Shown here: one piece after another, positions 7,233 through 59,609 of the stretch
How the letters are laid out: every line of letters starts with the position of its first letter
Position numbering within the stretch: position 1 is the first letter of the stretch
NCBI GenBank assembly: GCA_013360285.1
Contig: JABWCM010000002.1
Location: 29,469 to 93,468, forward strand
DNA from: Myxococcales bacterium
GTDB lineage: Bacteria > Myxococcota_A > UBA9042 > JABWCM01
DNA length: 64,000 nt
Direction of reading: 5' to 3'
The notes under the pieces: model-generated
Seen by the model: only the letters and a program-made list of their open reading frames with translations
The model's database searches: none
What the model was told of the DNA's origin: nothing
Translations under genes and position numbers: made by a program

Positions 7233-7240
7233 TGTGGTGT

Positions 7241-9712: not shown

Positions 9713-9713
9713 C

Positions 9714-12548: not shown

Positions 12549-12568
12549 GCCAGCGGTCAGAGGAAGAG

Positions 12569-14932: not shown

Positions 14933-14935
14933 GCT

Positions 14936-41698: not shown

Positions 41699-42276
41699 TC
41701 AACCAGTATTCTGAATTTCAACTCGAACAGTTGTCGCAAAACCTCGCGCAACTGTACGACATGATTTGTCGTGGTGAATTCTCAACGGCACACTTTGGTG
41801 TCAACCTAATCACGACAGTGCATGAGCGCATCTGGGTCGGTGTCGTAGACCATGCCGGTCGCATCCGAACCCGTGACTGGGGAGCAGAATATCTCGACTT
41901 TGGCCCCAACCGATCTGAACATCGGAACGCTGTCCGTGAAAAACTGGAAACACTGTGCCATTGGGTTGACTCAACGTTGCGCCGGTTGGAAGAAAACTCT
42001 GACGCTCCCGAATATGAACTGAACGCATACACAGTGGCCGCATTTGCTCAAGCAGAACTTGTGCGAATACACCCTTTTATGGATGGAAACGGCAGAATTG
42101 GCCGCGCCCTAACCGACATCGTGTTGGTACGGCTTGGATTCGGCGTGGTGAGAATCGACGCAGTCAAAGACGAATACTACGCGACGCTCAATGTGTACCA
42201 CACAACAAAAAAACCAGATGAATTTGTAGATCTACTCCTTCAGTGCGCTAACCCGGATTTCTCAAAGAGCTTGTGA
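41653..42276 (+). CDS. Fic/DOC family protein (AMPylase-type active site)
   Basis: The canonical Fic motif HPFMDGNGRIGRAL (HxFx[D/E]GNGRxxR) is present. The ATG is at codon 64 of the track ORF. The product is 207 aa. Confidence 0.85.
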   Translation: MPQDSVNRNVATDAIINQYSEFQLEQLSQNLAQLYDMICRGEFSTAHFGVNLITTVHERIWVGVVDHAGRIRTRDWGAEYLDFGPNRSEHRNAVREKLETLCHWVDSTLRRLEENSDAPEYELNAYTVAAFAQAELVRIHPFMDGNGRIGRALTDIVLVRLGFGVVRIDAVKDEYYATLNVYHTTKKPDEFVDLLLQCANPDFSKSL

Positions 42277-42578: not shown

Positions 42579-43094
42579 TTACGAATGGGACGGGTAAATT
42601 CCCTGGAGCGCGATGACGAAGTTGAGCGCGAGGATGGGTTGTATATTGTTATGCGGTTGGTTGCCTCCCGTTTGGCCAACAACTCCCGCGTTTAACGTGG
42701 TGGGTGCTGCTGGGCTGGGTACGTAATCATTGCCGCGTGAGGCCGACGGATAATTGCCCGATGGGCTCTGGGTGGTCCCCGGGTTGGCGTCCACGTTGAT
42801 GCTGTGGTTGTGCTGCGGCATTTCCGCGGCCGTCAGGGTTACCGTCTCGGACCCTGCTGTCTCCCCAAGCGAGTAATTCGACAGCCCGGGTCCCTGCCCG
42901 AAATGAATGGGTGCCCGCCCACGCAAATCCGGCAATGCAAACGTTGTGACGCCGTCTCCGCCGTATGTGGTGCCAAGTAATGAAAAAAGCGCCTGATTCT
43001 GTGCGATGCTCAAGAGTTGACCGTTGCAAAACGCCCAGCCCTTCGGCGCAAAATTGCCCGCAAAAAGAATGATTTGTCCGAGAATTGGATCCAT
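42579..43094 (-). CDS. phage tail collar domain protein (MdpB-like)
   Basis: 171 aa. It begins MDPILGQIILFAGNFAPKGWAFCNGQLLSIAQNQALFSLLGTTYGGDG...FALPDLRGR, the hallmark of the tail-collar family. A GGAG lies 7 nt upstream of the ATG. Confidence 0.88.
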   Translation of the reverse strand: MDPILGQIILFAGNFAPKGWAFCNGQLLSIAQNQALFSLLGTTYGGDGVTTFALPDLRGRAPIHFGQGPGLSNYSLGETAGSETVTLTAAEMPQHNHSINVDANPGTTQSPSGNYPSASRGNDYVPSPAAPTTLNAGVVGQTGGNQPHNNIQPILALNFVIALQGIYPSHS

Positions 43095-43188: not shown

Positions 43189-43221
43189 TCGCTCGCCGTT
43201 ATTTTTTTCTCAAACACCCTC
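43189..43221. mobile_element. solo terminus of a family C MITE-like element
   Basis: cgctcgccgttatttttttctcaaacaccctc matches the right terminus of the 998-1174 element and is followed by TAA. It abuts or overlaps the TAG stop (minus strand, 43221-43223) of the giant gene. No matching left end is nearby. Confidence 0.5.
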
Positions 43222-46200
43222 TAAGGCTCCCAGTGTACTCCCATGTCGACGGGCGTGGTGTCCAATATGCCGTCTTTTCTTGTGGTCTTTTGTTTCCAGG
43301 CGATTTTTGCCGCGTCGGCGGCGCTGTTGTTTCCGGCATCTACGCAGGCGCTTGTTGTGGTTGCTCCGCTTATGCCGGCATGTTTCAGAAACAACTTCGA
43401 GCCACTTACCGTAAATGGGTTTCCTGTGGTCGGATTTAAGACTAGGTTGCCGGTTCCCTGTGTAGCTACCGGCAGGCAACTGTAGGTGACGCTCACCGCG
43501 CTGCCATACGCTGTGCTCACCGCCGTTTCGTGACCCACACCCGTTGTTGCTTCGTTGTCGAAAAACGCCGAGTTGACCACCGACACATTGGATGCCGCCG
43601 AATAGATCGCTCCGCCCGTGGTTCCTTGGTTTTGATAAAACGAACAGCCGCTGATTTTCACGTAAATCCACGCATAAATCGCTCCGATGGCCCCTCCGGT
43701 GGTGTCGGCTTCATTGGCGTAAAAACTCGAATTGGTGATCGTGGTATACGCCGCGGCATACCCCAACGATACCCCCCCGCTTTGGGTATTTCCGATGTTG
43801 CCGCGAAATGTACAGTCCACGATATCCGTAAACACCGTATCCAGCGCCCGTAACGCCCCCCCTTCCCACCCTTCGTTGTATTCAAAACTCACTCCTCGCA
43901 GTTTCACCCCATCGTTTTCCGTTACCAACATTCCGCCGGTTCCCCCTGGATTCTGAACCACGGTCGACGTTTCGTTGTAACTTACGGAAGAATCTTCGAT
44001 CACAATATTGTTGCTTTCTTTCACCATGACGCCGCCTACCGGTCCTTCGGCGGAATAATTGTTGGTGATTTTCAGATTCCGCCCTACAAAATTCTGCCTC
44101 CCGACGATTCTTAACCCTGCTCCCCCAGCCAGGTCCGATGAGTCGCCGAAATTGGCCCCCCCGGCAATGGTAAATCCGTCCAAAATTGTGTCGTGGGCCG
44201 CGACCACCACGTGTTCGCTGTCGTTTGCGGACCAACCCCCGCTGTTGTCCCAATCCCCATTTAGCTCCGTTTTGACCAACGGTTGTTTCCGCGATTCTAC
44301 CGAACATTCCCCGGCACCGAATCCGCCATATACATCGACCCCCAACTTCATCGACAACACGTTGGATTTTGCCTGTTTACCTTTATAAACCCCATCGGCT
44401 ACAAACACTTGTTGACCTTCGGCGGCAATCGCCATCGCGTCGGCGATGGTTAAAAACGCGGTGCCCCACGACGTTCCATCGTGGACCGGTCCGGGAGCCG
44501 CATGGTCGACAAAAATCGCCACGGGATTGTGATAACACACCCCGGCTTCCCCCACGTCGGTCGTGCAGGGGTCCCCATCGTCGCAATCGGGGGTAAACAC
44601 ACACACTCCGTTGGCCCCACAAACGTCGATCGTAAACCCGTCCCCATCGTCGCACACCTTCGGCGTACCCTTACACACCTCGTTGATGCACATGTCGGAC
44701 AGCGTGCACGGGTCCGAATCGGAACAGGCCGTCCCATCTTGTTTGCCGTTACAGGTTGCATAATGGGCACCCATGTCAATGGGAGGATTGTCGGTCACCC
44801 CGTCGTTACGCGTTGTCATTTGTTTCCACAGAATATCGGCCTCTTTTGCGGCAGCGGAACTCCCGGCGTTGATGCAGGGAGAGGAATTTCCACCTCCGAA
44901 TTTCAAAAACAGGTTGTTGTTATCGACGACAAACGGATTTTCTGTGGTCGAATCCAAAAGAATGTTGCCCGTTCCACTGTAAGATACCGGAGAACAAGTA
45001 TAAGATACCGAAATGGATCCAGGTTGCGCCGACCCCGAATCCGCAACAAATTCATCGCCGGATGCACCAGCCAGCCCCTTGTTTGCAAAACCCGCTGTAT
45101 TGACTATCTCGATTGTCGCCAGTGCCCCAGCATAAATCGCTCCCCCCACACCGGCTTCGTTTTCGTAAAAAGAGCATCCGCTGACCAAAATACTCGTCGG
45201 AAAAGCAGACATCAACGCACTGCCGCTAATCGCTCCACCGTTTACCGACGCCGTATTGTTATAAAACGCGGTGTTCAACACGTTTATGTCGATCGATGAC
45301 GACACAATCAGCGCCCCTGCTTTCCCTTGGCTGTATTCGGCTGCTGAGTTCCCCACAAAAACACAATCGCGGATTTGGGTCCCGGGCGCCCGATTCAAAT
45401 CCAGCGCCCCCCCACCGTTGAACGCAAGGTTGTTCTCAAACACCACCCCTCGGAACTCAACAAGGGTGCTGTCCGCCACATACGCCCCCGCGCCATTGGA
45501 AGCGTCGTTGTTTTTGAACACGCAGTCGACAAACAACACATCGTCGCTGTTTTCCACAATGGCCCCGCCGCCCACACCCACAAAATATCCATGGCTGTCA
45601 AACGTGCAGTTACGCACTGTTACGTTTTCTACGGAATCCATGGCCAGTCCATACCGACCCAAATACGATTTCAGTCCGTTGGAGCCCGCCGTTCCCCCGA
45701 AATAAACCCCGTCCACCACGGTGTCCGATGCCCCCACCATCAGATACAGCGCGTCCGTGGTTTCCGAAATCGCGTCTTGGTCCGAATCCCCCACCAACCG
45801 GGTCAACAAAGGCGGTTCCGGGCGTTCCGAACGATCACACTCCGTTCCTTCAAATCCCCCATATAGGTCGACACCCGGTTTTAACTCGACCAGCGCCGAA
45901 TCCCCCACCGCCGACCAGTACAGCCCTTCGGCAACCCAGATTTCGTCACCCTCATCGGCCGCATCGACAGCGTCCTGAATCGTTGTAAACGCGGTTGCCC
46001 AGGACGCCCCATCGTGGATCGGCCCCGGCGCATTCCCATCCACAAAAACGGCAACTCCTCGATGGAGACATCCAGACGATGGCGCACACGAATCCAGCGT
46101 GCACCCATCCCCATCATCGCAGTCGACAGGTTCACCTCCCCCACACACACCCGCCAAACACGTTTCACCGGCAACACACAATCCCCCATCGCCTTCGCAT

Positions 46201-49200
46201 TCCGCCCCATCGATTCGTTCGGTCCATTCGGACTTGATAATCGCGGGTTTACAGTGTTGGCACCCGTTGTCCGGGTTCAATTCGTTCTGGGTGTAACATG
46301 CTCCGTTCAACGCACAAAATCCGTTGGTAATGGTGGTGGTACATTGAAACTGGTCGGGGCTCAGGGAACTGCAACCTTCTGTTGTGCACCCCAATCCATC
46401 ATCACAGGCGCTATTGGTGCCGGGAGTGCACAATCCGCCGGCGCACGAATCGGCCGTGCAGCCGTTACCGTCCAGTGCACATAACGTTCCATCCAACTGA
46501 TTGGACCATGCCGTTTGGGTTTGATCCGCGTCGCACACCAAACACGAGTTGTCCCCATTTGCGGTGCCGTCGACAACACATTGACCACCAATGAAACAAC
46601 GATTGGATTTGAGTGTGTGGGTGCACGTAAACGATGTGTTGTTCTCGGCAACACAAACATCCACGGTGCATCCCAGTCCATCGGAACAGTTTTGTGCCAA
46701 CGCGGCGGTACAAACCCCGGAGATGCAGGTTTCCCCTAAGGTACACGGATCCGAATCGTCGCACGCACTCCCATCGGCGATTCCTTGGCAGGGGGCAACA
46801 TAGTGGGCACCAATGTCTACCGGAGTACTGTCCAAACCATTGTCGGTTCGGGTGGTCAACGTGGCCCAGTCGATGCCCGCGGTGTTTGCCAAACTGTCCG
46901 ATCCCGCGTTTACACATACGCTCGAGGTCGTTGCCCCGTCGAGGCCGGCATGTTGTAAATATAGGCGTGCTCCCTTTTGTACAAATGGGTTTGTGGTAGC
47001 GGGGAATGTGACGTTGTAAGTGCTTCCTGGAGTTCCCCCTAAAGCCGGAGCGCAGCAATGTTGGGGGATGATCGATGCACCATTGACCATTCCGAACACA
47101 CTTTTGGTGGGGGATTCGGGATAAAAGACACAGTTGTGGACCTGGGCCACCATCGACCCATGTCCCCAGATGTCCTGCCCAATATTGGTCGATGGAGCCG
47201 CGTTTCCGTAAAATGAACAACCGGAAATGGTGATGTCCGTCCCGGCTGCGAAAATACTCCCTCCCCCTCCGGAGGATTGGTTGTCGATAAACGTACAGTT
47301 TCGAATCACTGCGCCGTCCGATGCCGACAGAAATACCGCTCCCCCATCATAAAAATAACTTCCCGAACCTTCGTTTCCGACAAAGGTGGAATCTTCGAGT
47401 AGAAAATCCGGCGTGGTGATCACCGACAAACCAGCGCCATGGGATGCGTCGTTGTTGGTAAACGAACATTGCCGCACCGTGACGTTGTTGCTGTGGTCAA
47501 TCCCCAAACCCCCGCCGGAAATCGACGTCACGATGTTGTTGTCAAACGAACAACGTTCGATCACAATGGAATCCCCCTGCTCGATCCGCATCGCCGAGCC
47601 CACGTTTCCGCCGGTCGCAGTGTTATAAACCCCAGCCATGGACAGATTTCGAAGTGTTACCTGATCGGCATGGACCAGGTTGACAAACATCAACGGATGA
47701 TACCCCGCGTCGGTTTCCACGGCCCCGGGTCCCATCACAAACCCGTCGATGACTACGTTGAAAACGTTCCAGATTTGTATCGCCTGCGGTGCATCGACGC
47801 CGTTTGTGTAGATTCCGTCTCCATCGATATCCGAAGTCAAAACCGACGGCGGCAACGGAAAGGTACGTTCGTCGGGGGAACATTGACCGGGCACAAATCC
47901 ACCCACTACGGTAACCCCCGATTTGGCGACCAGCGGCGGTACTTTCACGACGTTTCCGAACGCCAAAGTGGCGGTATAAAGGCCTTCGGCGACATAAATC
48001 ACTTTGTTGACGGCGGTTTTTGCCAAAGCATCGGTGATGGTTGGATAGGCTTGGTCCCACGAAGAACCATCGGGATTGACCGCTGTGGAATCATCGTCGA
48101 CAAACAATGCGGCCGGTGAGTGGCCGCATCCCACGAGCGGTGTACAAAAGTCGGTTGTGCATCCGTTTTGATCACCACAATCCAGTGTGCCCGTCGGGGC
48201 TCCACACACTCCAGCGGAACAAACGCTGCCAATCGTGCAGGGATCGGCGTCGTTTTCACAGGCCACCCCGTTGTTCCGATTGGAAAAAGCCACTTTGGAT
48301 GTTGCGGGTTTACATTCTTTACACGGATTGCTGGGGTCGGCATCGTTGGTTACATAACAAACGCCGTTCACATAACAGGCGCCGTTGATGACGGTTTGGC
48401 TACAGGAATATCCCCCGGACCCGTTGGTGGTGCAGGTGTTGGTAGTGCACGACAAACCATCTTCACACGGGTTTTTCTGAACACAAACCCCCGACTGGCA
48501 ACTTTTGGGGGCGCAGGCATTGGTTGAACTGCCGCAAAAACTTCCGTCGGCAACCCACGACCACGCCGTGTTCGTAAGTGTCGGTTGGCAGCTTTCGCAA
48601 CTCGATCCTGTTTGCGTGGTGTTTTCGGCGATACATTGGCCGCCGATCAAACAGAAAGCGGGTTTGATCGTGTGCACGCACCCCAAGGTGGAGGCCCCAA
48701 GAAATACACAACTGTCGCTGGTGCATGCCAGTCCATCGTTGCAGTCCGAATCTTGGGAACACGGTTGAACGGCGGCACAGGACGCAGAATCGGCGATGTC
48801 ACAGGGCAGATTATGGGCTCCGATGTCAACGGGTGCCAAATCCGCGGCCCCATCGGTCCGGGTGGAAAGCGCCCAGTAGGGGACCCCCGACTCCAGAGCG
48901 GAAACAGGGTCTCCCGCGTCCACACATGGGGAGGTAGTCGATTGGCCGTCCAGACCGGCGTGTACCAAATAAAGGTGGAGGTCGGCTACCACAAACGGAT
49001 TCTGGGTGTCGGTGAGGTGGATGTTGCCCACCCCATTGGCGGTACCTTCAAGGGGGGCGCCCCCATAGCAGGTGTGGTGAAAAAGCGGCGGCGCGGCGTT
49101 AAAATAAGAAACCGGCAGGGCGTCACTCCCAAAAACGGCCGCGTTGGCGACGGTGACCGACGACCCCCATTCGTTTCGCAGCAACGACCATGCTCCCGGC

Positions 49201-52200
49201 TCCATCGCCGCCGACACCCCACGAATGACGACACCCGGTGTGTTGTTGACCCACAAAGCGAAGCCGCTTGCCGTGCCCAGGTAGGAGTTGCCAAAAAACG
49301 TGAGGTTATCCGCCGTCACTCCGGTGCAGGACGCTACACTCACGACTCGCCGTTGACCGGAAATCAACCCTTGGTTTCCCCAAAAGCGGGTGCCGCGTAG
49401 AATAAGCCCATCGATATCGACAAATTCCGCGGCCATTTCAAATCCCAACGATTCGTTTTCCAAAAACAACGAGTCGCGGATTTCCACGTTGGAACTGTAG
49501 TTGGCCCGCAGAACCGGGTCGGAGGACGAGCTGGTGTTGGCTGTAAATTCACACCGGTCGATGAGCACGTCCGAACTGAGTTCAATTGCAACAATGGCCG
49601 CAGTAGAGGCCGTGAGGTTTTTTCCAACCGTCATGGCGTTGCCGACAATCTTACAATTTCGAACCACAAAATGACTTTCGTTGATGACTTCAATCGCCGC
49701 TCGTCCTTGATAGGGGGTTGCTCCATCGACTCCCCCCGCTCCGCCCAGAATGAACCCGTCCAACGTAGACTGAGACGCCCCACGCACAAGCACCGGGTTG
49801 TCGCCGATAAACGGGGCGGTTGCTGCATAATCGGTGACGCCATCTTTGTCGAAATCGGCCGATAGAATCGTGGGGGCCAATGGGTACGGCCGTTGTGCGA
49901 TGCTGCATTCGTTGCCGGCAAACCCGCCGTACAGATCCACGTCGTCTTTCATGGGGACTACCGCCATTTGTCCGGAGGCTGCGTCGCCGATTTGGGGATC
50001 GTGGTAATACGTACCCTGAGCGACAAAGAGTTGGGAGCCCGCTTCGGCGACCGCCAAGGCGCTGCGAATCGTGGGGAATGCTTTTTCCCACGAACTCCCG
50101 TCCGCCGCCCCATTCGTATTGTTCCCATCGACAAAAATCGCAACGGGGGTGTGTTGGCACCCCACAAAAGGAATACAACTATCCTGTGTACATTCGGTAC
50201 CGTCGTCACAGGTCGATGGCGACGAAGCAACACATTGGCCGTTTGTGCAATAATCCATGTCGGTGCAGGGGTCGAGATCGGCTTCACACGCGGCGTTGGT
50301 GTTTTTGTTGGTAAACGAGGTGGTGTTGGTCGCTGACTTACAGTGTTGGCAATCGTTTTGTGGGTTTTCTTCCCCTTCTTTGAAACATTCGCCGCCAATC
50401 ACACACCGTTGTGATTTGATCGTATGAGTACAGGAATACGCTGACCCCGACGAGGTGCACCCATCGTCGGTACACGGCAAACCATCCGAGCAGTCAACCG
50501 CCGGTCCCGGGACACACACACCGACTAGGCAACTGTCGCCGCCGGTACAGGCGGAATTGTCGGCGTTACAAACCTGGCCGTCGGCACGCGGTGAAAACGA
50601 GGATTGGCTTTTGGACGGAGTACATTTTTCGCAAACCTGTGCCGGATTTTTCTCGTCGGCGGTGTAGCAAACGCCGGCAATGGCGCAGTTTCCTTTTAAG
50701 ACGGCAACACTGCACGTGAACGTGGAAGCGCCGGTAGATACACAAGTTTCTGTTGTACACGCCAGTCCATCGGAACAATTGGCGGTTGGCCCGGCCTCAC
50801 AGAATCCCCCGCTGCATACATCCCCCACGGTACACCCATTGTTATCTGCATTGCAGGGGGTTCCATTGGTGGTGTTGGACCAGGTGGTTTTGGATGTTGC
50901 GGGTTTACAACTTTGGCAGGGATTTTGGGGATTGACTGCCTGGCCCGCCCAACAAACCCCTTCGATCAAACAGAAGTTGTTCACCACGGAGTTGACACAA
51001 CTGTTGGTAGTCGCCGAACAGGAATCCGTTGTGCATGCCAAGTTGTCGTTGCAATTGACGTTGCCGGAAAGAACACATACCCCCCCCTGGCAGGTATCTA
51101 TGGTGCAAGCGGGTCCGGCGATGTCGCAGGCGGTTCCGTTGGGTCGAGGGCTGTACGCCGTCGTACTGAGGGCGGGGGCGCACTCCTGGCAACTGTTCGT
51201 GGGGTTTGGGTCGCCGTCGTCCATACACACCCCATTGATCAAACATTTTCCGGACTTGATCAGATTGGTGCATTGGTATGTCGTTGCGCTCAGGGATACA
51301 CAACCGTCTGTGGTGCACCCTTTGTTGTCATTGCAGTTGACCAACGTTCCGGCCACGCAGGTTCCCCCTTGGCAGGAGTCTCCCTGGGTGCACCCGTTGT
51401 TGTCGATTTCGCAGGCAACCCCATTGTTTTTGGCGGTCCACTCCGTCGAAGACGTGGATGGTTTACACTGCTGACAGGCGTTTTCCGGATTGTCTCCCCC
51501 CGATGAGAAACACACGCCGTCGATTAGACATTTGGTGGACTCAATGGGATGGGTGCAGGTAAACGAAGTGGGGCCTGCGGAAACACAACTGTCGGTCGTG
51601 CAACCGAGTCCATCGCCACAGTTGGGGGCAACCCCCGGAATACATACTCCTTGTTGGCAACTGTCATTTTGGGTGCACCCATTGGAGTCGGCGTCGCATC
51701 CGGTACCGTCTTCCAACGCGCTCCAGGCCGTTTTGGATTGCGCCGGTTTACATTTCAGGCAGGGATTGGCGGGATTTTGTGCGTGGGCTTCCCAACAATT
51801 CCCGTCGATCCAACAACTTCCTTTGATGACGGAGTGGGAACATTCTCCGGTGGCCGGATCACAGACGTCGTTGGTACAAGAGATCTCGTCGTCACAGGTT
51901 TCCGTGGTTTCCGTTGTACATACTCCGGCTGCACACACGTCGTCGGTGCACAGATTGTTGTCTTTTTCGCAAACGACGCCGTCATTTTTGTTGGACCACG
52001 CACTTGTTGACAGGGCGGGGCGACAGCTTTGGCACGGGTTGTTCGGATGTTGTTCGCCTTTTTCGTAACATTGGCCGTCGATGAGACAAAATCCCCCCGT
52101 CAAGCTGTTGCCGCAAACAAAGGTTTCCGACCCCGTTGCTGAGCAGAAATCGGCTGTACACGTCAACCCATCTTCACACTCGTTGGTTTCCCCTGGGGTA

Positions 52201-54956
52201 CAGACACCCAAGATACAGGTGTCCTGGACGGTACATCCGCTCTGGTCGGCGTCGCAAGGGGTGCCGTCGGGACCGGCGCTCCAAGCGGTTTTTGTCAGGG
52301 CGGGTTTGCACCGCTGGCAAGGGTCCTCTGGGTTGTCGGATTGCCCCGTGACACACACCCCATCGATCAAACAAAACCCGGACGTTACCGTATGGCTGCA
52401 CGTTGCTTCTTCGGAATCCGCAGAAGAACAAATGTCGATGGTACAATCGGCCCCATCGTCACAATCCAGGGTGGGTCCTGGGCTGCACACCCCTGACTGG
52501 CAGGTATCCCCCACGGTACATCCACTGTTGTCTGCGTCGCACGCTACTCCATCACTCCGGGGGGACCACGCGGTTTTCGATTGGGCGGGAGCACATTTTT
52601 CACAGGGGTTTTCCGGATTGATCTCCCCGGAATCATAACACGTTCCGGCAATGGCACACGTTCCGCTGGTGGGTTTCTGGTCGCACCCAAATGTCGTGGC
52701 ACTGCTCGACACACAGCTTCCCGTGGTGCAACTCAATCCGTCATCGCAGGTTTCGGTAGTTCCTGGAAGGCAGACGCCCGACGAACATTGGTCGGAAGTG
52801 GTGCACCCATTGTTGTCGGCGTTACACGGGGTTCCGTTGGTCTGCGACGACCAGGTGGTTTTGTTCTGGCCGGGTTTGCATACTTGGCAGGGATTTTGTG
52901 GGTTGGGTTCATTGGACCCATAACAGATGCCGTCGATCAAACAAGACCCGGATCCAACGGTGTGGATACACTGGGATGTTCCCCCATCGCACACATCGGT
53001 GGTGCAGCTTTTGGAGTCGTTGCAGTTGGTTTGCGCCGTCGCCGTACAACTGCCCGCAACGCAGGTGTCCACCGTGCAGAACCCCTGGGTCAGTTCACAC
53101 GCGGTTCCGTTTGGTTTTGGGCTCCATTGGGTTTGAGAAAGAAGAGGGGCGCATTCTTGGCACGGATTCGATGGGTTGGCAACGCCGTCGGTGCGACAAG
53201 TTGTCCCGATCAAACAGCGGTCTGGTAAGATTATGTTGTTACAAACGAAGGTAGTGGCCCCTGTCGAAGTACAACTGTCGGCAGTACAGGCTTTGTTGTC
53301 GTTGCAATTGGGAGCCGCCCCTGGCGTACAGACACCGGTTTGGCATTGATCCCCCACGGTACATCCATTGGTGTCGGCGTCACAGGCGGTCCCGTTGGTT
53401 TTGGCGGTCCAGGCGGAAATCGAAGTCGCTGCGTTGCACTGAAGACAGGGGTTGTCCGGATTGCCGGCTCCCCCAGCCCAGCATACCCCGTCAATCAAAC
53501 ACTGGGTGGGGTTCGCAGCGTGGGTGCACTGGTAGGTATTTGCGGTTGTTGAAACACAGGCGTCGGTGGTACACGACAGCCCATCGGCACAATTGGGGGC
53601 CGCACCGGCGATACACTGGCCGCCTTGGCACGTATCGTTGTGGGTACATCCCGAGCCGTCGGCGTCACACGAAGTGGTGTCTTCTTTGGCGGTCCAGGCG
53701 GTTTTCGCAACCGACGATTTACAAACCTGGCAGTCGTTGCTGGGGTTGGGATCGTTGGCGGCCCAACACACGCCGTCGATGAAACACGTTTTGTTTAGTA
53801 CGGGGTGATCACATGTGAATGATGAGGGGGACTCGGAGACACACAGGTCGGAAGTACACGTCAATCCGTCGTTACAATCCGCGGCAGGTCCGACAATGCA
53901 CACGCCGGCCGCACACGAATCCCCTGTGGTGCAGCCGTTGCCGTCGGCGTCGCATGCGGTGCCGGTCGCAACAGTGCTCCAGGCGGTCTGTGTTGTGGTG
54001 GGTTTACACAAAAGGCAGAGGTTTTCCGGATTGGTTGTGTTGGAATCGTAACAAATCCCGTCGATGAGGCATTTGCCGGAAAGAATGGGGTTTTGGCACA
54101 CGTAGGTGTTGGTCCCGGTCGAAACACAACTGTTTTGGGTACAGGGAACCGAGTCGGCGCACCCGACCGGTTTTCCCGCGACGCACACCCCAGCCGAGCA
54201 GGCATCGTCGGCGGTACAGCCGGAACTGTCCGCATCGCAGGGGGTGCCGTCCATCTTTCCCGAACATTGGGTTTCGCAGGCGTCCGGGCACTGGTTCTGG
54301 TTGGTATCGATCGTCAAATTCAGGGGGCTTTGCAGCCCGTAGTTGATCACAATGAGAATGTCGTTGACGTTACGTTGTGCGTCACAATCGACGTCCAACA
54401 ACGTTTTGGAAACCAACGCACACAATGGTGGTGGGGAGTTCGGATCCGAAAGGTCGGCTAAAACCGCCAAAATCATACATTGAACATCGGCAACGTTGGT
54501 CACTCCGGTTGCATTGACGTCGCCTGGCGGATCGAGGCATTCCGCGGCCCAACCCCATGACGGAAACCCACAAACGGCGGCAATACAAAGGAGTTTGCGA
54601 AAGAAAGCAGCGTACCATTGCAGCAGACGATGACCGTACGCTTTGAGTTTGTGAAAAAATAGCTGCGCGGCCTCTGGGCGGTGGCTTTGGGGCGGCTTGG
54701 CTCCGAAAAATCCTGGGCCATATTCCCGATATGACTCGGGTTTTCCCAAACCAATCCGCCGCCAAATCCACGCCCACAGCCCGCGCCCATATTTTTTCCC
54801 AAACTCGTTGGCAGAAGCATTCGCTGCACCATCGTCCTGATGTGGTCCGGGTTTTCCGAGTCCGGCGCAGCGCAAAAACACCGTCCGCAGTCCGTGCCTG
54901 TCTTTCTTCGTAAGATCAGAGATCATCCGAGTCGTCGAAAACAAATTTTGGGCCAT
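43221..54956 (-). CDS. giant secreted/surface protein: dockerin-like N-terminus, ~18 copies of a ~97-aa 12-Cys module, four Pmp-type parallel beta-helix domains
   Basis: Uninterrupted 3,911-codon ORF. A signal-like segment FFRKLLCIAAVCGFPSWGWA-AE lies at aa ~118-138. The recurring module is C(L/F)IDGxC...NPxNxCxxCxP...(A/T)WS/T...CDADxNGCT...C..GVC..G....CxDGLxCTxDxC. The four beta-helix units each open with (A/V)(I/V/L)FVD...DG(S/A/T)SW..A(F/Y).TI..A and contain GGAI(Y)/FxxN repeats. The start codon is uncertain because a MITE lies within codons 51-104. Confidence 0.8.
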   Translation of the reverse strand: MAQNLFSTTRMISDLTKKDRHGLRTVFLRCAGLGKPGPHQDDGAANASANEFGKKYGRGLWAWIWRRIGLGKPESYREYGPGFFGAKPPQSHRPEAAQLFFHKLKAYGHRLLQWYAAFFRKLLCIAAVCGFPSWGWAAECLDPPGDVNATGVTNVADVQCMILAVLADLSDPNSPPPLCALVSKTLLDVDCDAQRNVNDILIVINYGLQSPLNLTIDTNQNQCPDACETQCSGKMDGTPCDADSSGCTADDACSAGVCVAGKPVGCADSVPCTQNSCVSTGTNTYVCQNPILSGKCLIDGICYDSNTTNPENLCLLCKPTTTQTAWSTVATGTACDADGNGCTTGDSCAAGVCIVGPAADCNDGLTCTSDLCVSESPSSFTCDHPVLNKTCFIDGVCWAANDPNPSNDCQVCKSSVAKTAWTAKEDTTSCDADGSGCTHNDTCQGGQCIAGAAPNCADGLSCTTDACVSTTANTYQCTHAANPTQCLIDGVCWAGGAGNPDNPCLQCNAATSISAWTAKTNGTACDADTNGCTVGDQCQTGVCTPGAAPNCNDNKACTADSCTSTGATTFVCNNIILPDRCLIGTTCRTDGVANPSNPCQECAPLLSQTQWSPKPNGTACELTQGFCTVDTCVAGSCTATAQTNCNDSKSCTTDVCDGGTSQCIHTVGSGSCLIDGICYGSNEPNPQNPCQVCKPGQNKTTWSSQTNGTPCNADNNGCTTSDQCSSGVCLPGTTETCDDGLSCTTGSCVSSSATTFGCDQKPTSGTCAIAGTCYDSGEINPENPCEKCAPAQSKTAWSPRSDGVACDADNSGCTVGDTCQSGVCSPGPTLDCDDGADCTIDICSSADSEEATCSHTVTSGFCLIDGVCVTGQSDNPEDPCQRCKPALTKTAWSAGPDGTPCDADQSGCTVQDTCILGVCTPGETNECEDGLTCTADFCSATGSETFVCGNSLTGGFCLIDGQCYEKGEQHPNNPCQSCRPALSTSAWSNKNDGVVCEKDNNLCTDDVCAAGVCTTETTETCDDEISCTNDVCDPATGECSHSVIKGSCWIDGNCWEAHAQNPANPCLKCKPAQSKTAWSALEDGTGCDADSNGCTQNDSCQQGVCIPGVAPNCGDGLGCTTDSCVSAGPTSFTCTHPIESTKCLIDGVCFSSGGDNPENACQQCKPSTSSTEWTAKNNGVACEIDNNGCTQGDSCQGGTCVAGTLVNCNDNKGCTTDGCVSLSATTYQCTNLIKSGKCLINGVCMDDGDPNPTNSCQECAPALSTTAYSPRPNGTACDIAGPACTIDTCQGGVCVLSGNVNCNDNLACTTDSCSATTNSCVNSVVNNFCLIEGVCWAGQAVNPQNPCQSCKPATSKTTWSNTTNGTPCNADNNGCTVGDVCSGGFCEAGPTANCSDGLACTTETCVSTGASTFTCSVAVLKGNCAIAGVCYTADEKNPAQVCEKCTPSKSQSSFSPRADGQVCNADNSACTGGDSCLVGVCVPGPAVDCSDGLPCTDDGCTSSGSAYSCTHTIKSQRCVIGGECFKEGEENPQNDCQHCKSATNTTSFTNKNTNAACEADLDPCTDMDYCTNGQCVASSPSTCDDGTECTQDSCIPFVGCQHTPVAIFVDGNNTNGAADGSSWEKAFPTIRSALAVAEAGSQLFVAQGTYYHDPQIGDAASGQMAVVPMKDDVDLYGGFAGNECSIAQRPYPLAPTILSADFDKDGVTDYAATAPFIGDNPVLVRGASQSTLDGFILGGAGGVDGATPYQGRAAIEVINESHFVVRNCKIVGNAMTVGKNLTASTAAIVAIELSSDVLIDRCEFTANTSSSSDPVLRANYSSNVEIRDSLFLENESLGFEMAAEFVDIDGLILRGTRFWGNQGLISGQRRVVSVASCTGVTADNLTFFGNSYLGTASGFALWVNNTPGVVIRGVSAAMEPGAWSLLRNEWGSSVTVANAAVFGSDALPVSYFNAAPPLFHHTCYGGAPLEGTANGVGNIHLTDTQNPFVVADLHLYLVHAGLDGQSTTSPCVDAGDPVSALESGVPYWALSTRTDGAADLAPVDIGAHNLPCDIADSASCAAVQPCSQDSDCNDGLACTSDSCVFLGASTLGCVHTIKPAFCLIGGQCIAENTTQTGSSCESCQPTLTNTAWSWVADGSFCGSSTNACAPKSCQSGVCVQKNPCEDGLSCTTNTCTTNGSGGYSCSQTVINGACYVNGVCYVTNDADPSNPCKECKPATSKVAFSNRNNGVACENDADPCTIGSVCSAGVCGAPTGTLDCGDQNGCTTDFCTPLVGCGHSPAALFVDDDSTAVNPDGSSWDQAYPTITDALAKTAVNKVIYVAEGLYTATLAFGNVVKVPPLVAKSGVTVVGGFVPGQCSPDERTFPLPPSVLTSDIDGDGIYTNGVDAPQAIQIWNVFNVVIDGFVMGPGAVETDAGYHPLMFVNLVHADQVTLRNLSMAGVYNTATGGNVGSAMRIEQGDSIVIERCSFDNNIVTSISGGGLGIDHSNNVTVRQCSFTNNDASHGAGLSVITTPDFLLEDSTFVGNEGSGSYFYDGGAVFLSASDGAVIRNCTFIDNQSSGGGGSIFAAGTDITISGCSFYGNAAPSTNIGQDIWGHGSMVAQVHNCVFYPESPTKSVFGMVNGASIIPQHCCAPALGGTPGSTYNVTFPATTNPFVQKGARLYLQHAGLDGATTSSVCVNAGSDSLANTAGIDWATLTTRTDNGLDSTPVDIGAHYVAPCQGIADGSACDDSDPCTLGETCISGVCTAALAQNCSDGLGCTVDVCVAENNTSFTCTHTLKSNRCFIGGQCVVDGTANGDNSCLVCDADQTQTAWSNQLDGTLCALDGNGCTADSCAGGLCTPGTNSACDDGLGCTTEGCSSLSPDQFQCTTTITNGFCALNGACYTQNELNPDNGCQHCKPAIIKSEWTERIDGAECEGDGGLCVAGETCLAGVCGGGEPVDCDDGDGCTLDSCAPSSGCLHRGVAVFVDGNAPGPIHDGASWATAFTTIQDAVDAADEGDEIWVAEGLYWSAVGDSALVELKPGVDLYGGFEGTECDRSERPEPPLLTRLVGDSDQDAISETTDALYLMVGASDTVVDGVYFGGTAGSNGLKSYLGRYGLAMDSVENVTVRNCTFDSHGYFVGVGGGAIVENSDDVLFVDCVFKNNDASNGAGAYVADSTLVEFRGVVFENNLAFNGGGALDLNRAPGTQIRDCVFVGNSAAEYSQGKAGALIVSSSIDINVLNTAFYNNTASVNGGAISGSALMSAFPTSILVSGCSFYENEAGVGGAIYAGALATIEIVNTAGFANKGLAGASGDEFVADSGSAQPGSISVSYTCSPVSYSGTGNILLDSTTENPFVVDNNNLFLKFGGGNSSPCINAGSSAAAKEADILWKQMTTRNDGVTDNPPIDMGAHYATCNGKQDGTACSDSDPCTLSDMCINEVCKGTPKVCDDGDGFTIDVCGANGVCVFTPDCDDGDPCTTDVGEAGVCYHNPVAIFVDHAAPGPVHDGTSWGTAFLTIADAMAIAAEGQQVFVADGVYKGKQAKSNVLSMKLGVDVYGGFGAGECSVESRKQPLVKTELNGDWDNSGGWSANDSEHVVVAAHDTILDGFTIAGGANFGDSSDLAGGAGLRIVGRQNFVGRNLKITNNYSAEGPVGGVMVKESNNIVIEDSSVSYNETSTVVQNPGGTGGMLVTENDGVKLRGVSFEYNEGWEGGALRALDTVFTDIVDCTFRGNIGNTQSGGVSLGYAAAYTTITNSSFYANEADTTGGAIGAIYAWIYVKISGCSFYQNQGTTGGAIYSAASNVSVVNSAFFDNEATTGVGHETAVSTAYGSAVSVTYSCLPVATQGTGNLVLNPTTGNPFTVSGSKLFLKHAGISGATTTSACVDAGNNSAADAAKIAWKQKTTRKDGILDTTPVDMGVHWEP
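54645..54806 (+). mobile_element. MITE-like element, family A, lying inside the annotated 5-prime end of the giant ORF
   Basis: 162 bp with termini GAGTTTGTGAAAAAATAGCTG...CATATTTTTTCCCAAACTC. It aligns along its whole length with 55244-55404. The flanks are TTT and GTT. Confidence 0.7.
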
Positions 54957-55243
54957 AAACCACCTGCCTACCGGAAACCAGGCGCCATTCCCGCCGAGGG
55001 GCCAACGGGCTCACCTGCATGACAGCGTCCATGGGAGTCGACACTAAGGGGAGCCAGGGGCGGTGTCAATGAACTTATGAGTGTTTATAGCATGTGCATC
55101 ATTTTGAGTGCGCTGGTCCGGTGCGACCTGGCCTAAAACGGCCCGCCGGAGCCGTAGGAGCAGCCTTTGCACGGCACGAAACATCCCGCCAATTGGGCGA
55201 CCGAGGTGCAAATCGGGGGCCAGGACGTGCAGCAGAAGGCGTT

Positions 55244-55404
55244 GAGGCTGTGAAAAAATAGCTGCGCAGGCTTTCGGCGGTGGCTTTTGGTCGCCTTGCT
55301 TCCGAAAAATCCTGCGCCATATTCCCGATAAGACTCGGGTTTCTCAAAACCCATTCGGCGTAAACTTCGCGGCCCAAGGGGCACCCATATTTTTTCACAA
55401 ACTC
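55244..55404 (+). mobile_element. MITE-like element, family A
   Basis: 161 bp with termini GAGGCTGTGAAAAAATAGCTG...CATATTTTTTCACAAACTC. It lies in the intergenic region between the two large surface-protein genes. Confidence 0.7.
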
Positions 55405-55660: not shown

Positions 55661-58600
55661 CTATCTGCATTTCTGCTTACGCATTTCGGTGGTGCCTTGG
55701 TCGCAAAACAACGCGGACGGGCAGTCTTTGTACCAACTGGCGGAAACACCGCATGTCGGCGCGGGGGTGTTCACCCACCCCGGAGTAAACCCGCAGAATC
55801 CGAAGAACCCTCCGCACGGCGATCCCTGTTCGGTCCATAGCTTTTGGAAGGCCCCATTACAATCATAGTCCCAACTCAGCCCACCGCCATACCACGCATA
55901 GGGAACGTCGTAAAACCCTGTCGCGTTCGGATACGCTTTCGGATCGGTGGGACCGCAGTCGAGGCACGTCATCCACCCGTCCCCGTCCGGATCGAGTTCT
56001 TCGTCCGACACCGCTCCGCTACAGTCGTTGTCGATTCCATCGCAAGCCTCAGAGGCGCCGGGGTGAATGCTCCCGTTCTCATCGTTGCAGTCATCCAAAC
56101 AGGCAAAGTACCCGTCCCCGTCCAAATCGTGTTCTCCAACGGCGCCGTAAACCCCGTTGCAGTCGTTGTCCAATGCGTCGCAGATTTCCGGGGCGTCGGG
56201 ATAAACCGTTATGTTACCGTCATTGCAGTCGCCCGCACAGGTGGCATAACCCTCCGCGTCCACGTCGAGTTCGTCGGTCGGGAGCACGCCGTCGCAGTTG
56301 TTGTCCACGGCGTCGCACAACTCGGGCAGTCCGGGTGCGACGTCGGCCCGGGTATCGTCGCAATCGCCCGCGCAGCCCAACAGGCCGTCCCCATCCTGAT
56401 CGGTTTCTCCTGCGACCACCTCCAGTTTGACCCACAGTTTCCACCAATGAACCGTGCCGTACACGCCGGAACCGCAGCAACTCGTGAAATCACTCGCTTC
56501 GAATGCCCACGAACCCCCGCTGTTCTTTCCTACGACGGCGGACAGCGGCGTTTCCGGTTTGAAACGCCCAATAAACGAACTTTTGAGCTGGCCGATCGGT
56601 GTCGTTGCGTCGTCGTCCCACGTCGTGTCGACAAATCCCGGGGCTCCGATGGCGTTGTTCGCCAGCAGAACGCCCGTACCGTCCGGCGCAAACAACCACA
56701 GGTCCATAGCGCCCGTACCCTGCGCGTGCGTGACATGCGCTCGCACCTCGATATCCAACACCTTGCCGGGCGGCAACGTTGCATACAGAGTGGCTTTGTG
56801 TTTCGCGGTCCCGGAAATCGGATCGTTGAAATTCCAAAAACTATTGGCCCATCCTCCACCCGGAACGTGGATATTGACCCACCGAACGGCAGTCACGGTG
56901 GCAGTCGTCGCCGGATCACAGTCGCTATCCTTGCCGTCGCAGACTTCCGGCGCCCCCGGGAAACGCGATGGTTGGTCGTCATCACAATCCACGCACGCCA
57001 AATATCCGTCCAGATCCATGTCGACCTCGCCGGTCGCCAAGCCATCGCAGTCGTTGTCCTTGCCGTCGCACAACTCCGGCGCACCTGGCCACACATCGGG
57101 ATCGGAGTCGTTGCAATCCACGCACGCGGGAGACCCGTCCATGTCCAAGTCCTCCAGACCAGAGGCATTTGTCTCGTGGAAACACATTCCACCAACGCAG
57201 TAGTCCGCGGTACACGGATCCGCATCGTCGCAATCGAGGGCAGCACCCGCGAGGCAGGAGCCGCCCATCGCCGGCGGGATCTCGATCTCGTCTATCGCTG
57301 CCCCATCGGCTTCTACGCGCACCTTCACCACCCGCGCCTCCACCGCGGCAAACCGCGCTTCAATGGTCTCGTTGAACGTGATCTGCCCCGAAAACGGCGT
57401 ATCGTTGGAGTCGAAAACCTGTACATATTCCCACAAATCGTTGTCATCGTTTCCTTGCGCGTAGTGGGCATCGGCGAGAGCCACCAGTATTCGGATTCGT
57501 CCCGGGTCACGATCATCGAAGTTGCCCAACCGATCACGCCCCAGTCGCACTCGGTCGATCTTGTGTTTCGTACCCAAATCGATCTTCATCCAGTTGTTGG
57601 GACCCACGCCGATCCAACTCGAGCCATTTCCATAGGCCCCATCGTTGAGGAACTTGGGCTGGTGAATATCGAAAGCGCCGCTCGCAATCGTTGCCTGGGT
57701 CACGGCCGGATAGGCGGCCCCAAACGGTGAAGTAGCCGCGAGGTTTTCCGGGTTGTCGTAGTTCTGGCGGGCGCAGTTTGGCGCAATGGGGGTCGCGCCC
57801 GATGCGCAGGACGCTTCCCCGACCATCAAAGATGCCGGCACGACGGTGACCTCGGGTGTTGGGCAACTGTCGCCCACGGTGCAGGCGTTCCCATCATCGC
57901 ATGGGCCGCCCGACGCCGCAAACACACAGCCCACCGCGGGGTCGCAACCGTCGAAGGTGCAGACATTCCCGTCGTCGCAAGGCACCACGGCCCCGCCCAC
58001 GCAAACCCCACCGCTGCATGTGTCCCCGGTGGTGCAAGGATTGCCGTCCTCGCACTGGGACTTGAATTCGCACTGACCGAGGGCATTGCAGAAGTCGGTC
58101 GTACACGGGTCCGAATCGTCGCAAGTAGACTTACCTTGGCAGCCCTTGACGGGATCACATGAGTCGATGGTGCAGGGCAGACCATCATCGCAAACGCCCT
58201 CCAGAGTCACGAACTGGCATTGGTGGTTGGCATCACACACCCCGGCGGTGCAATCGACCACCCCATACTCGCAGTCCAGGTCCGTGAAACACAACTTGGT
58301 GACGTCGGGGACCAAGGCAAACCGCAGGTTGTCGGCATAACCATCGTTATACAGACCCGCGAACCGAGTAGCCTCGAGGGTCACGGCGGCGGTTCGTGTG
58401 CCAACGGGAACGGGCCCGCACGCGCTCCGCAACAACAATCCGGTCAAGGACCATCGATCGGCGCTCGTTACCGGACCGATGCTCGATTGACCCAGCGTTT
58501 CGCCCGCGGTGTCCAAAAATACGGCGGACACACGCACCTGATCGCCCTGACCCTCATACCCGCCCAGGTACCCCGACAGCGCGAACGTCGATGTTCCTGC

Positions 58601-59464: not shown

Positions 59465-59521
59465 CGGTTGTCTCCCGGAGTTTGTGGGACCAAAAGGCAG
59501 TCCCAGGAGGCTCACGGCTCA

Positions 59522-59609
59522 GAGAGTTTGTGAAAAAATAGCTGAACGAACTTGGACGGATGCTTTTGTCCCCACTGCCCAGAGTCCGCGCAGCTATTTT
59601 TTCACAGAC
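59522..59609 (+). mobile_element. MITE-like element, family A short form (termini only)
   Basis: 88 bp, GAGAGTTTGTGAAAAAATAGCTG...CAGCTATTTTTTCACAGAC, forming a long hairpin. It is flanked by TCA (59519-59521 and 59610-59612) and lies ~55 nt upstream of the 59464 start codon. Confidence 0.65.

Follow-up and report, generated by a model that had tools for sequence, protein, structure and literature searches.

The window, that is, the whole 64,000-nt stretch of DNA analysed here, carries on its reverse strand a giant reading frame of 3911 codons plus stop (43221-54956). As the preliminary description had stated, it is uninterrupted, with 0 frameshifts or stops across 11.7 kb. Its features, in the direction of transcription, are the following:

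43221..54956 (-): whole ORF, 3911 codons plus stop, collinear with the orthologue P0002 at 52% identity over aa 79-3911
54627..54956 (-): doubtful 5' extension, aa 1 to ~110, basic, overlapping a repeated hairpin element
54640..54806 (-): imperfect palindrome of ~165 nt, with the box GCTATTTTTTCACAAACTC at its end
54543..54599 (-): signal-peptide-like segment, aa 120-138, RKLLCIAAVCGFPSWGWAA directly before E
54249..54542 (-): dockerin-like N-terminal domain, aa 139-236, two EF-hand-type loop-helix segments and, after them, a small cluster of Cys
50298..54248 (-): array of 14 tandem 12-Cys modules, aa 237-1553, delimited with the module HMM
50148..50297 (-): half-module with two CTDC-type hairpins only, aa 1554-1603, HMM positions 2-43, adjoining beta-helix 1
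48807..50147 (-): beta-helix unit 1 with cap, aa 1604-2050
48117..48806 (-): linker 1, aa 2051-2280, a module truncated at its N-terminus, then a full one and a half-module
46797..48116 (-): beta-helix unit 2 with cap, aa 2281-2720, best Pfam Beta_helix stretch at aa 2451-2610
46059..46796 (-): linker 2, aa 2721-2966, two full modules and a half-module, best Dicty_CTDC stretch at aa 2945-2965
44757..46058 (-): beta-helix unit 3 with cap, aa 2967-3400, the sole unit reaching the TIGR01376 POMP_repeat cut-off
44526..44756 (-): linker 3, aa 3401-3477, a half-module and a degenerate Cys fragment
43224..44525 (-): beta-helix unit 4 with cap, aa 3478-3911, modelled with AlphaFold2; the protein ends 2 residues past the cap

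A nearby ORF (36891-39959) encodes a secreted glycan-related protein with PNGase F C-terminal and LamG domains, and the ORF upstream of the giant one contains an F5/8 type C domain. An exact look-up of the product of the downstream tail-collar ORF found it not on record. The copper-binding protein MopE was discarded as a candidate, as the motif belongs to a neighbouring ORF and not to the giant one.

Start and N-terminal region

The real start of the giant ORF probably lies further downstream than listed. The first ~105 codons share their DNA with the repeated palindromic element and are therefore likely to be untranslated, and the first ~105-110 codons are probably a non-coding leader. The palindrome is predicted to fold as RNA at -97.5 kcal/mol (z = -9.1). 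A second copy of the element is located at 55239-55404, and the hairpin/box is present 5' of both Cys-rich secreted genes in the window as well as 5' of the orthologue. An Rfam scan of the upstream hairpin gave only chance matches to miRNA-like hairpins, far below gathering scores.

Residues 1-138 carry a net charge of +13, and that of the whole giant protein is strongly negative. The signal-peptide-like segment was recognised from its sequence and by comparison with P0007, a relative with 3 beta-helix units, which has a short signal peptide at its start, directly before a CLEPPGD motif homologous to ECLDPPGD of the giant protein. The mature protein most likely begins with this ECLDPPGD, near aa 139. 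Just 5' of the segment there is no canonical in-frame start codon, the nearest candidates being TTG at 54749 and CTG at 54626/54623. The gene is real, and its product is a predicted secreted protein of roughly 3,800 residues, in which no transmembrane segment was found.

The dockerin-like N-terminus proposed earlier was recovered as a segment with two EF-hand-type loops (D-x-N-x-T-G-x5-D and D-x-D-x-D-x6-D), but it does not reach the Pfam Dockerin_1 (PF00404) cut-off of 22.9, scoring 17.9 bits (E = 0.0037) in isolation and 13.6 bits within the whole protein. In the alignment of the giant protein, P0002 and P0007, loop 1 reads D8-x-(N/T)-x-(T/S/N)-G-x5-D19 followed by VQC.IL.VL, and loop 2 reads D50-x-(D/N)-x-D54-x6-D61 followed by I..I; both are kept in all three family members. 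A PDB sequence search with the N-terminal domain yielded no dockerin match, only designed "Pizza" proteins at E>0.3, and a Pfam scan of 20 ORFs in the window detected no cohesin family.

Cys modules, beta-helix units and relatives

The array consists of 14 full modules arranged back to back without any spacer, and further modules are found between the beta-helix units. The module HMM reproduced the count of about 14 copies given earlier and corrected the size from ~97 to 95 aa; as counted, eleven modules in the array measure 95 aa, copies 5, 9 and 12 measure 91 aa, and the last measures 94 aa. The Cys spacing is near-invariant (C-x6-C-x5-C-x4-C-x7-C-x5-C-x4-C-x9-C-x8-C-x5-C-x11-C-x2-C), and the mature part of the protein contains 285 Cys at fixed spacing. 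The spacers between the beta-helices, first described as 2, 2 and about 1 degenerate module, could be refined to 2 plus a half, 2 plus a half, and a half plus a fragment. A half-module stands after the 14-copy array as well, so that each of the four beta-helices has one immediately before it.

The preliminary description had set this module apart from the shorter CxDGNxCT repeat. That holds for the C-terminal ~50 aa, an extra sub-domain with the conserved pattern C-L-I-x-G-x-C-x11-C-x2-C-x-P...T-A-W-S, but not for the first ~45 residues, which form two C-x-D-x3-C-T-x-D-x-C-type hairpins. Module positions 1-45 match the CTDC-positive ORF at 26927-29353 with per-domain E-values down to 3e-8, and the hairpins cross-match CTDC-rich ORFs elsewhere in the window. 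Judged from these alignments, the N-terminal half of the module and the shorter CTDC-type hairpin repeat are homologous, and only the C-terminal ~50 aa are extra. The giant protein missed the PF00526 cut-off of 27 by 1 bit (26.0 bits, 7 stretches), and TIGR02232 gave no match in NCBIfam searches at E<=1 for the whole protein and E<=10 for single modules. No Pfam or NCBIfam counterpart was found for the Cys module or for its C-terminal sub-domain, and PDB searches with either gave none. The AlphaFold2 model of one module consists entirely of beta-hairpins (pLDDT 87.7); Foldseek against PDB and BFVD found nothing at E<=0.001, and the best matches, at E>0.6, were to generic Cys-rich repeats of the EGF, TNFR or lectin kind. 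Within these searches the 95-aa module belongs to no characterised family.

The module itself is by no means scarce. A profile search at E<=0.001 recovered at least 7,423 cluster representatives (50% identity), of which all named ones are called "hypothetical", and their sources are Polyangiales and Deltaproteobacteria MAGs. As this exhaustive search found thousands of modules, the empty result of a word-indexed homology search with a two-module query came from the index. At least one full-length module was present in 103 of the 154 sequences scanned (the giant protein and 153 retrieved proteins), and module arrays in other proteins are joined to LamG, VWA, pentaxin, OmpA, NosD-type beta-helix, RCC1, DUF11 and HYR domains. 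The Cys module is thus widespread but uncurated, not rare.

The four beta-helix units are 434-447 aa long, share 32-39% protein identity, and lie where they had been placed originally. In the Pfam scan, the giant protein scored 83.6 bits for PF13229 (cut-off 25.9, 5 stretches) and 48.3 bits for PF07602 DUF1565 (cut-off 20.3). The AlphaFold2 model of unit 4 (pLDDT 89.4, pTM 0.91) shows short beta-strands repeating throughout, and Foldseek related it with a probability of ~1.0 to pectate-lyase-fold proteins (PL9, GH136, PME, RbmB and PfbA), a set that includes CAZymes as well as the pneumococcal adhesin PfbA. With identities of 8-14% and TM-scores of 0.25-0.5 (PL9 Pel9A TMq 0.51), these matches indicate the fold and not the family. 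All four units are predicted to adopt the right-handed parallel beta-helix fold, which is compatible with adhesins (PfbA, Pmp) and enzymes alike. A PDB sequence search with the beta-helix profile returned only noise at E = 0.36.

The opening FVD...DG(S/T)SW..AF.TI and the cap NPF...TTR.DG..D..P(V/I)D(I/M)G(A/V)H, singled out in the preliminary description, are indeed common to all four units, but they are the consensus of a widespread single-domain family and not special to this protein. Including these motifs, the units appear to be ordinary members of the Pmp-repeat/right-handed beta-helix family. The label "Pmp-type" survived in part. The motif F..N occurs 5 times in every unit at ~27-aa spacing (expected ~1.2), the counts of GGA[ILV] in units 1, 2, 3 and 4 are 0, 1, 4 and 3 (expected ~0.15), TIGR01376 reached 15.5 bits (cut-off 15) in unit 3 only, and PF02415 is present in homologues of the units (25-32% identity), for which JGI uses the name "predicted outer membrane repeat protein". 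PF02415, however, did not match the giant protein at E<=1, and the Pfam scan revealed no autotransporter barrel or Pmp middle domain, so "Pmp-type" would apply only as a distant family resemblance. A C-terminal sorting domain was likewise absent. Across the beta-helix family, Gly, Asn, Trp, Tyr and one Asp are invariant, a set typical of a structural ladder, and no pectate-lyase or glycoside-hydrolase family of Pfam or NCBIfam matched the giant protein.

The orthologue P0002 (3850 aa) comes from a different sequencing run (SRR12897917) and has an identical domain order. Its four units correspond one-to-one to those of the giant protein, with 42-55% identity on the diagonal and 32-39.5% off it, and it matches the order of all 22 Cys-module HMM matches, including the short 91-aa modules at 5, 9 and 12. 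The DNA copies are diverged, as previously noted, with 47-64% identity among modules and 53-58% among beta-helix units, and exact direct repeats in the gene reach 21 nt at most. Because units and modules match by position between proteins of only 52% identity, the array has been maintained and not recently amplified or homogenised; it is old and stable between lineages. Among the 150 best module-bearing proteins, this combination was shared only by the orthologue, its near-identical cluster member and one 3-unit relative, all without names, which bears out the earlier view that the combination corresponds to no described class. The architecture is rare and nameless; each of its parts either has a known fold or is a module that is widespread though uncharacterised, and it is not a new kind of molecular system.

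A putative extracellular fibre and alternative readings

We see an even chance that the protein, which comes from an uncultured and probably Myxococcota-related bacterium, is a very large, acidic fibre outside the cell that works like a fibrillar adhesin, its stalk rich in disulfides and its four beta-helix heads binding or processing glycans. The chain would be exported by Sec through the N-terminal signal-peptide-like segment visible in its sequence, and would then fold oxidatively with ~140 disulfides, as its regularly spaced Cys suggest. The 14-module array would make a rigid, elongated and protease-resistant stalk, a role that is consistent with the all-hairpin model and with the fusion of such arrays to many unrelated extracellular domains elsewhere. 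The C-terminal half would display the four beta-helix domains as multivalent heads, with spacers of two modules keeping them apart; the fold is seen in the model, and the heads may bind a polysaccharide or cell-surface ligand and possibly cleave it. Most conjecturally of all these steps, the dockerin-like EF-hand-type N-terminus might attach the fibre to the producer cell or a partner protein, and it is the most likely attachment point since a C-terminal anchor is absent. The inferred layout would run from an anchor through a repeated stalk to distal binding domains, as in a fibrillar adhesin.

More tentatively, and with some doubt on our part, the 95-aa 12-Cys unit (two CTDC-type hairpins plus C-L-I-x-G-x-C...N-P-x-N-x-C-x-x-C-x-P...T-A-W-S) may represent an undescribed, very abundant extracellular domain family without structural relative, and the proteins that join it to a dockerin-like anchor and 3-4 beta-helix heads may amount to a new class of bacterial surface fibre, belonging to a deep Myxococcota-like lineage. 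Through the hairpin/box, the genes of this class might share their regulation with those of other Cys-rich secreted proteins. With the module defined, thousands of giant proteins now called "hypothetical" in Polyangiales- and Deltaproteobacteria-type MAGs could be annotated, and structural biologists would have a compact disulfide-rich fold to solve. The stalk and four heads are separable parts for experiments on the way in which uncultured bacteria, possibly predatory or social ones, attach to polysaccharide surfaces or process them.

The protein could instead be a multi-catalytic secreted enzyme degrading polysaccharides, in which the units are lyase or glycosidase domains on a Cys-rich scaffold and the dockerin-like domain recruits them to a cohesin-based complex, as in cellulosomal enzymes. 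We rate this as unlikely, though well worth considering. The top Foldseek matches are GH136 lacto-N-biosidases, PL9 Pel9A, rhamnogalacturonan lyase, RbmB and pectin methylesterases, and since the best structural neighbours are enzymes, a catalytic role is conceivable; the dockerin-like segment and the glycan-related secreted neighbours (the PNGase F C-terminal/LamG and F5/8 type C ORFs) also fit. Against it, those structural matches share only 8-14% identity at TM-scores of 0.25-0.5, no lyase or hydrolase family was matched, the invariant residues look structural with no catalytic constellation found among them, and the closest sequence relatives are Pmp-repeat proteins.

It seems improbable that the protein is a released structural component of a matrix or biofilm, not anchored to the cell, whose multivalent beta-helices cross-link exopolysaccharide. 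Neither end bears a recognisable membrane or cell-wall anchor, the chain is very acidic and rich in disulfides, as expected of a stable extracellular polymer-binding protein, and four spaced heads are suited to cross-linking; however, the EF-hand/dockerin-like domain is kept in 3/3 family members, and this conservation suggests a specific docking interaction.

Membership of the chlamydial-type Pmp proteins, which are type V autotransporter adhesins, is very improbable: it is favoured by the enrichment of GGA[ILV] and FxxN in units 3 and 4, the score of unit 3 just above the TIGR01376 cut-off and the PF02415 of homologues, but GGA[ILV] is sparse in units 1 and 2, PF02415 itself is absent, and the missing barrel and middle domain in a chain that stops 2 residues after its last cap refute the autotransporter assignment. 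Hardly credible, too, is that the locus is a pseudogene or a repeat region that is collapsed or chimeric: although the gene is highly repetitive, the assembly is of metagenome type and neither the 3911-aa nor the 3901-aa product has an exact record elsewhere, the frame is intact, an exact repeat of at most 21 nt among diverged copies leaves nothing for an assembler to collapse, and the independently assembled orthologue has the same module and unit order. A polymorphic toxin was ruled out, as there is no C-terminal toxin domain.

Comparison with known systems

The closest relatives of the beta-helix units are environmental Pmp-repeat/beta-helix proteins of 450-750 aa (PF13229, PF02415, PF07602), with which each unit aligns end to end at 25-32% identity. 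The units share with them the opening consensus YVD..DG.SW..AF..L..A...GD.IWVA.GTY and the cap consensus SPCIDAG...D..G..R...VDMGA.E. Those proteins have a single beta-helix and often a C-terminal tag, of the T9SS or another type, whereas the giant protein has four units per chain, each after Cys hairpins, and no such tag. The Cys module was found near none of 80 related beta-helix loci in GTDB species representatives. Chlamydial Pmp proteins repeat GGA(I/L/V) and FxxN on a beta-helix, a pattern that the giant protein shows for FxxN in every unit and for GGA(I/L/V) mainly in units 3 and 4, but they possess an autotransporter barrel and a middle domain, and their taxon and overall architecture are unrelated. 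In comparison with the Dictyostelium CTDC repeat (PF00526), the giant protein's module has two CTDC-type hairpins plus the extra ~50-aa sub-domain. A 2026 preprint on eukaryotic cysteine-rich repeats deals with a different repeat and holds no annotation for the Cys module.

Within Myxococcota, the surface protein TraA combines a variable domain, cysteine-rich repeats and MYXO-CTERM (PMC13184517). Both proteins join a Cys-rich repeat region to a putative binding domain, but the giant protein is without MYXO-CTERM. The dockerin-type giants of Omnitrophota reach at least 30,000 aa and contain many dockerin and thrombospondin-3 repeats as well as C-terminal transmembrane anchors (bioRxiv 10.1101/2023.11.21.568195). 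Like the present protein, they are very large, repetitive and extracellular, come from uncultured bacteria, contain dockerin/EF-hand-type Ca-binding elements and have a proposed role in attachment; here, in contrast, there is one weak dockerin-like segment, and the repeats are completely different.

[quoted passage not shown] A term search of the survey text found neither the Cys module nor Pmp-like beta-helices. In the giant protein, the Pfam scan identified no known anchor domain, which leaves the weak dockerin-like N-terminus. The giant protein resembles fibrillar adhesins in its long single chain, its tandem stalk and its putative binding domains away from the presumed anchor, and differs from them in having four heads instead of one and an anchor that is putative.

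Cysteine module array of the giant protein

The giant ORF (43221-54956, minus strand) runs through 3911 codons without interruption, and its product is high in Gly, Ala, Thr, Ser, Asp and Cys, with 288 cysteines (7.4%). Using a module HMM built from an initial segmentation of the protein, we located 14 contiguous full copies of the 95-aa, 12-cysteine module at aa 237-1553, followed by a half-module, which contains only the N-terminal CTDC-type hairpin pair. More full and half modules lie between the beta-helix regions, and each beta-helix is preceded by a half-module. The cysteine spacing is near-invariant (C-x6-C-x5-C-x4-C-x7-C-x5-C-x4-C-x9-C-x8-C-x5-C-x11-C-x2-C), and copies 5, 9 and 12 belong to a shorter, 91-aa variant. 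The intact ORF, module array and four beta-helix units reported in the preliminary description were confirmed, as was the divergence of the DNA copies: identity is 47-64% among modules and 53-58% among beta-helix units, and exact direct repeats within the gene reach at most 21 nt. Within the array (50298-54248), modules seven positions apart are on average 51% identical, compared with 42-47% at other lags, and this likeness points to an ancient duplication of a seven-module block.

Single modules gave no meaningful match in Pfam or NCBIfam, even at E<=10, and no sequence match in PDB. The AlphaFold2 model of the module (pLDDT 87.7) consists of four beta-hairpins; Foldseek returned nothing for it at E<=0.001 in PDB and BFVD, the nearest neighbours being generic EGF, TNFR or lectin Cys-rich repeats at E>0.6. 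The module profile, run exhaustively against 1.84 billion cluster representatives, matched 7,423 at E<=0.001, 3,492 at E<=1e-10 and 930 at E<=1e-30. The module is common in metagenomes, yet uncurated and structurally unmatched. At least one full-length module was present in 103 of the 154 sequences scanned (the giant protein plus 153 retrieved proteins), and the named ones, which come from MAGs of Polyangiales and Deltaproteobacteria, are all called "hypothetical protein". In other proteins, arrays of the module are joined to LamG, VWA, pentaxin, CarboxypepD_reg, OmpA, NosD-type beta-helix, RCC1, DUF11 and HYR domains; the module thus behaves as a generic spacer or stalk of extracellular proteins.

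The module had been described as distinct from a shorter cysteine repeat. This holds for its last ~50 positions, which match neither of the ORFs at 26927-29353 and 55661-59515, but not for its first ~45, which match the CTDC-type hairpin repeats of both; the module is composite. Dicty_CTDC itself scored 26.0 bits on the giant protein, against a cut-off of 27.

Beta-helix units and conservation of the architecture

The beta-helix units have the following limits, which the preliminary description had placed correctly to within a few codons:
aa 1604-2050, minus strand, beta-helix unit 1
aa 2281-2720, minus strand, beta-helix unit 2
aa 2967-3400, minus strand, beta-helix unit 3
aa 3478-3911, minus strand, beta-helix unit 4

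The units are mutually 32-39% identical in protein sequence, and all four share the opening and cap motifs noted earlier. The consensus of a 38-sequence alignment of homologues reproduces both the opening (YVD..DG.SW..AF..LQ.AL.AA..GD.IWVA.GTY) and the cap (SPCIDAG...D..G..R...VDMGA.E), so the motifs are hallmarks of the beta-helix family and not particular to the giant protein. The unit 4 search retrieved 130 proteins with whole-alignment identities of 21-32% (local BLASTP segments up to 43%). Among the 120 listed, most are single-domain proteins of 450-750 aa; many carry PF02415 and/or PF13229 and go by the name "predicted outer membrane repeat protein" or else "right-handed parallel beta-helix repeat-containing protein". 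On the giant protein, Pfam gave Beta_helix (83.6 bits, 5 stretches) and DUF1565 (48.3 bits), and the NCBIfam matches LIC10774 and NosD were both sub-threshold. The earlier Pmp-type label stands only in part: TIGR01376 POMP_repeat reached 15.5 against a cut-off of 15 in unit 3 alone and homologues carry PF02415, but Chlam_PMP had no match at E<=1, and identity as a Pmp autotransporter was rejected.

The AlphaFold2 model from the unit 4 alignment is confident (pLDDT 89.4, pTM 0.91) and shows short beta-strands repeating throughout. Foldseek matched it in PDB with a probability of ~1.0 to pectate-lyase-fold proteins at only 8-14% identity, including GH136 lacto-N-biosidases, PL9 Pel9A, rhamnogalacturonan lyase, RbmB, pectin methylesterases and the adhesin PfbA. 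Enzymes in this list fit the main rival reading, that the protein may be a multi-catalytic polysaccharide-active enzyme. The matches establish the fold of the unit, not its activity.

Loops of DxDxDG type occupy an equivalent position in unit 1 (DFDKDG, aa 1701-1706, ~49839-49856) and unit 2 (DIDGDG, aa 2376-2381, ~47814-47831), with degenerate counterparts in units 3 and 4 (DSDQDA, DWDNSG) and a weak Pfam match to FG-GAP here. Each beta-helix may bear a Ca-binding loop on its side.

P0002, a 3850-aa orthologue from the Logan assembly of SRR12897917 (contig of 11,983 nt), is collinear with the giant protein (52% identity, 3,854 alignment columns) and does not differ from it in layout. Its 14 modules again include short variants at 5, 9 and 12 and are followed by a half-module; the three linkers are likewise the same, and each of the four beta-helix units most resembles the one at its own position in the giant protein (42-55% on the diagonal vs 32-39.5% off it). 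The fourfold organisation is thus kept in P0002, and the relative P0007 (2355 aa, JGI metagenome 3300037311) has three units and roughly 7 modules, 6 of them full and one partial, a number in keeping with the duplication suggested by the lag-7 periodicity. The organisation is therefore old and maintained, which also disfavours mis-assembly of the gene. Neighbouring genes are not conserved across the three loci.

The stalk-plus-four-heads architecture is rare and unnamed, in line with the earlier remark that the combination was unrecognised: among the best 150 module proteins, it was shared only by the orthologue, together with a near-identical member of its cluster, and by a single relative with three units. 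Across GTDB species representatives, related beta-helix units turned up at 80 loci spread over many phyla, among them Hydrogenedentota, Synergistota, Planctomycetota, Bacteroidota, Chloroflexota and Myxococcota; full-length identity was always <=35% (short segments up to 46%), and none of the 80 had a Cys module near these units.

The 5' end and genomic surroundings

A ~165-nt element (54640-54806) overlaps the first ~105 codons of the giant ORF, and a second copy with 81-92% identity lies at 55239-55404. The element is an imperfect palindrome (RNA fold -97.5 kcal/mol, z = -9.1 vs shuffles) closed by the box GCTATTTTTTCACAAACTC, whose core ATTTTTTCACA has 5 copies in the window vs 0.09 expected. 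Two of the five together make a shorter palindrome at 59529-59606, immediately upstream of the Cys-rich 1284-aa ORF next to the giant gene, so that both Cys-rich secreted-protein genes have box-ending hairpin elements upstream. In another organism, the 5' region of the P0002 contig (L083) carries the core twice (85-95 and 366-376), with the full box at 366-376. We regard the hairpin/box as a candidate shared cis-regulatory or leader element; because it recurs at 5' ends, "LFFHKL" in both ORF translations is probably a nucleic-acid signal rather than protein.

The element also casts doubt on where the giant ORF is annotated to start. A signal-peptide-like segment, RKLLCIAAVCGFPSWGWAA (aa 120-138), directly precedes the E of the first conserved residues, ECLDPPGD, and P0007 opens with a short signal peptide immediately ahead of the homologous CLEPPGD. 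No canonical in-frame start lies between box and signal peptide; an in-frame TTG (54749) falls within the hairpin, and CTG codons occur at 54626 and 54623.

The window is chromosomal and carries HisRS, NiFe-hydrogenase and HypF/HypD genes; a cluster of housekeeping and hydrogenase genes at 3573-20649 encodes an aromatic amino acid lyase, HisRS, a 4Fe-4S protein, NiFe hydrogenase large subunit, HypF, HypD and a 5'-nucleotidase. HisRS was found unchanged in two Logan assemblies (SRR8490538, SRR25608314). Its nearest named relative, from a "Myxococcales bacterium" MAG, is only 59% identical, followed by Acidobacteriota at ~50-53%, so the source lineage is poorly sampled; it is uncultured and only loosely placed near Myxococcota.

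Genes for extracellular, glycan-related and Cys-rich proteins are concentrated around the giant gene. The following ORFs were observed:
26927-29353, plus strand, secreted-type 808-aa ORF with 7 Dicty_CTDC repeats (117 bits)
36891-39959, plus strand, secreted-type 1022-aa ORF with Laminin_G_3 and PNGase F C-terminal domains
41464-42276, plus strand, Fic/DOC-domain ORF, beyond the phage-tail-collar ORF
42579-43094, minus strand, 171-aa phage-tail-collar-domain ORF (107 bits), co-directional with the giant gene and 126 nt downstream
55661-59515, minus strand, 1284-aa Cys-rich ORF, upstream neighbour on the same strand, with 5 MopE-type putative metal-binding motifs (131 bits), Dicty_CTDC repeats and weak matches to proprotein-convertase P-domain and F5/8 type C

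The product of the last is likely another secreted protein. Neither the phage-tail-collar nor the Fic/DOC ORF is conserved beside the orthologues (contigs L083 and L084).

Proposed mode of action and comparison with known systems

The giant protein has a hydrophobic signal-like segment at its N-terminus, no transmembrane segment and no C-terminal sorting domain, and its mature chain is strongly acidic (net charge roughly -200). The N-terminal domain contains two conserved EF-hand-type loop-helix segments, with Dockerin_1 at 17.9 bits, under the cut-off. We propose that the protein would be exported by Sec and then folded oxidatively, with the module array serving as a rigid stalk, the four beta-helix domains as multivalent glycan-binding, or possibly glycan-cleaving, heads, and the N-terminal domain as a Ca-dependent docking module. 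We rate it as a giant secreted repeat or adhesin-like protein.

The operational description of fibrillar adhesins combines stalk domains in tandem with an adhesive domain (PMC8286594), and the proposed stalk and heads would fit it. In Myxococcus TraA, too, cysteine-rich repeats are paired with a recognition (variable) domain, but TraA carries a MYXO-CTERM tag, which the giant protein lacks (PMC13184517).
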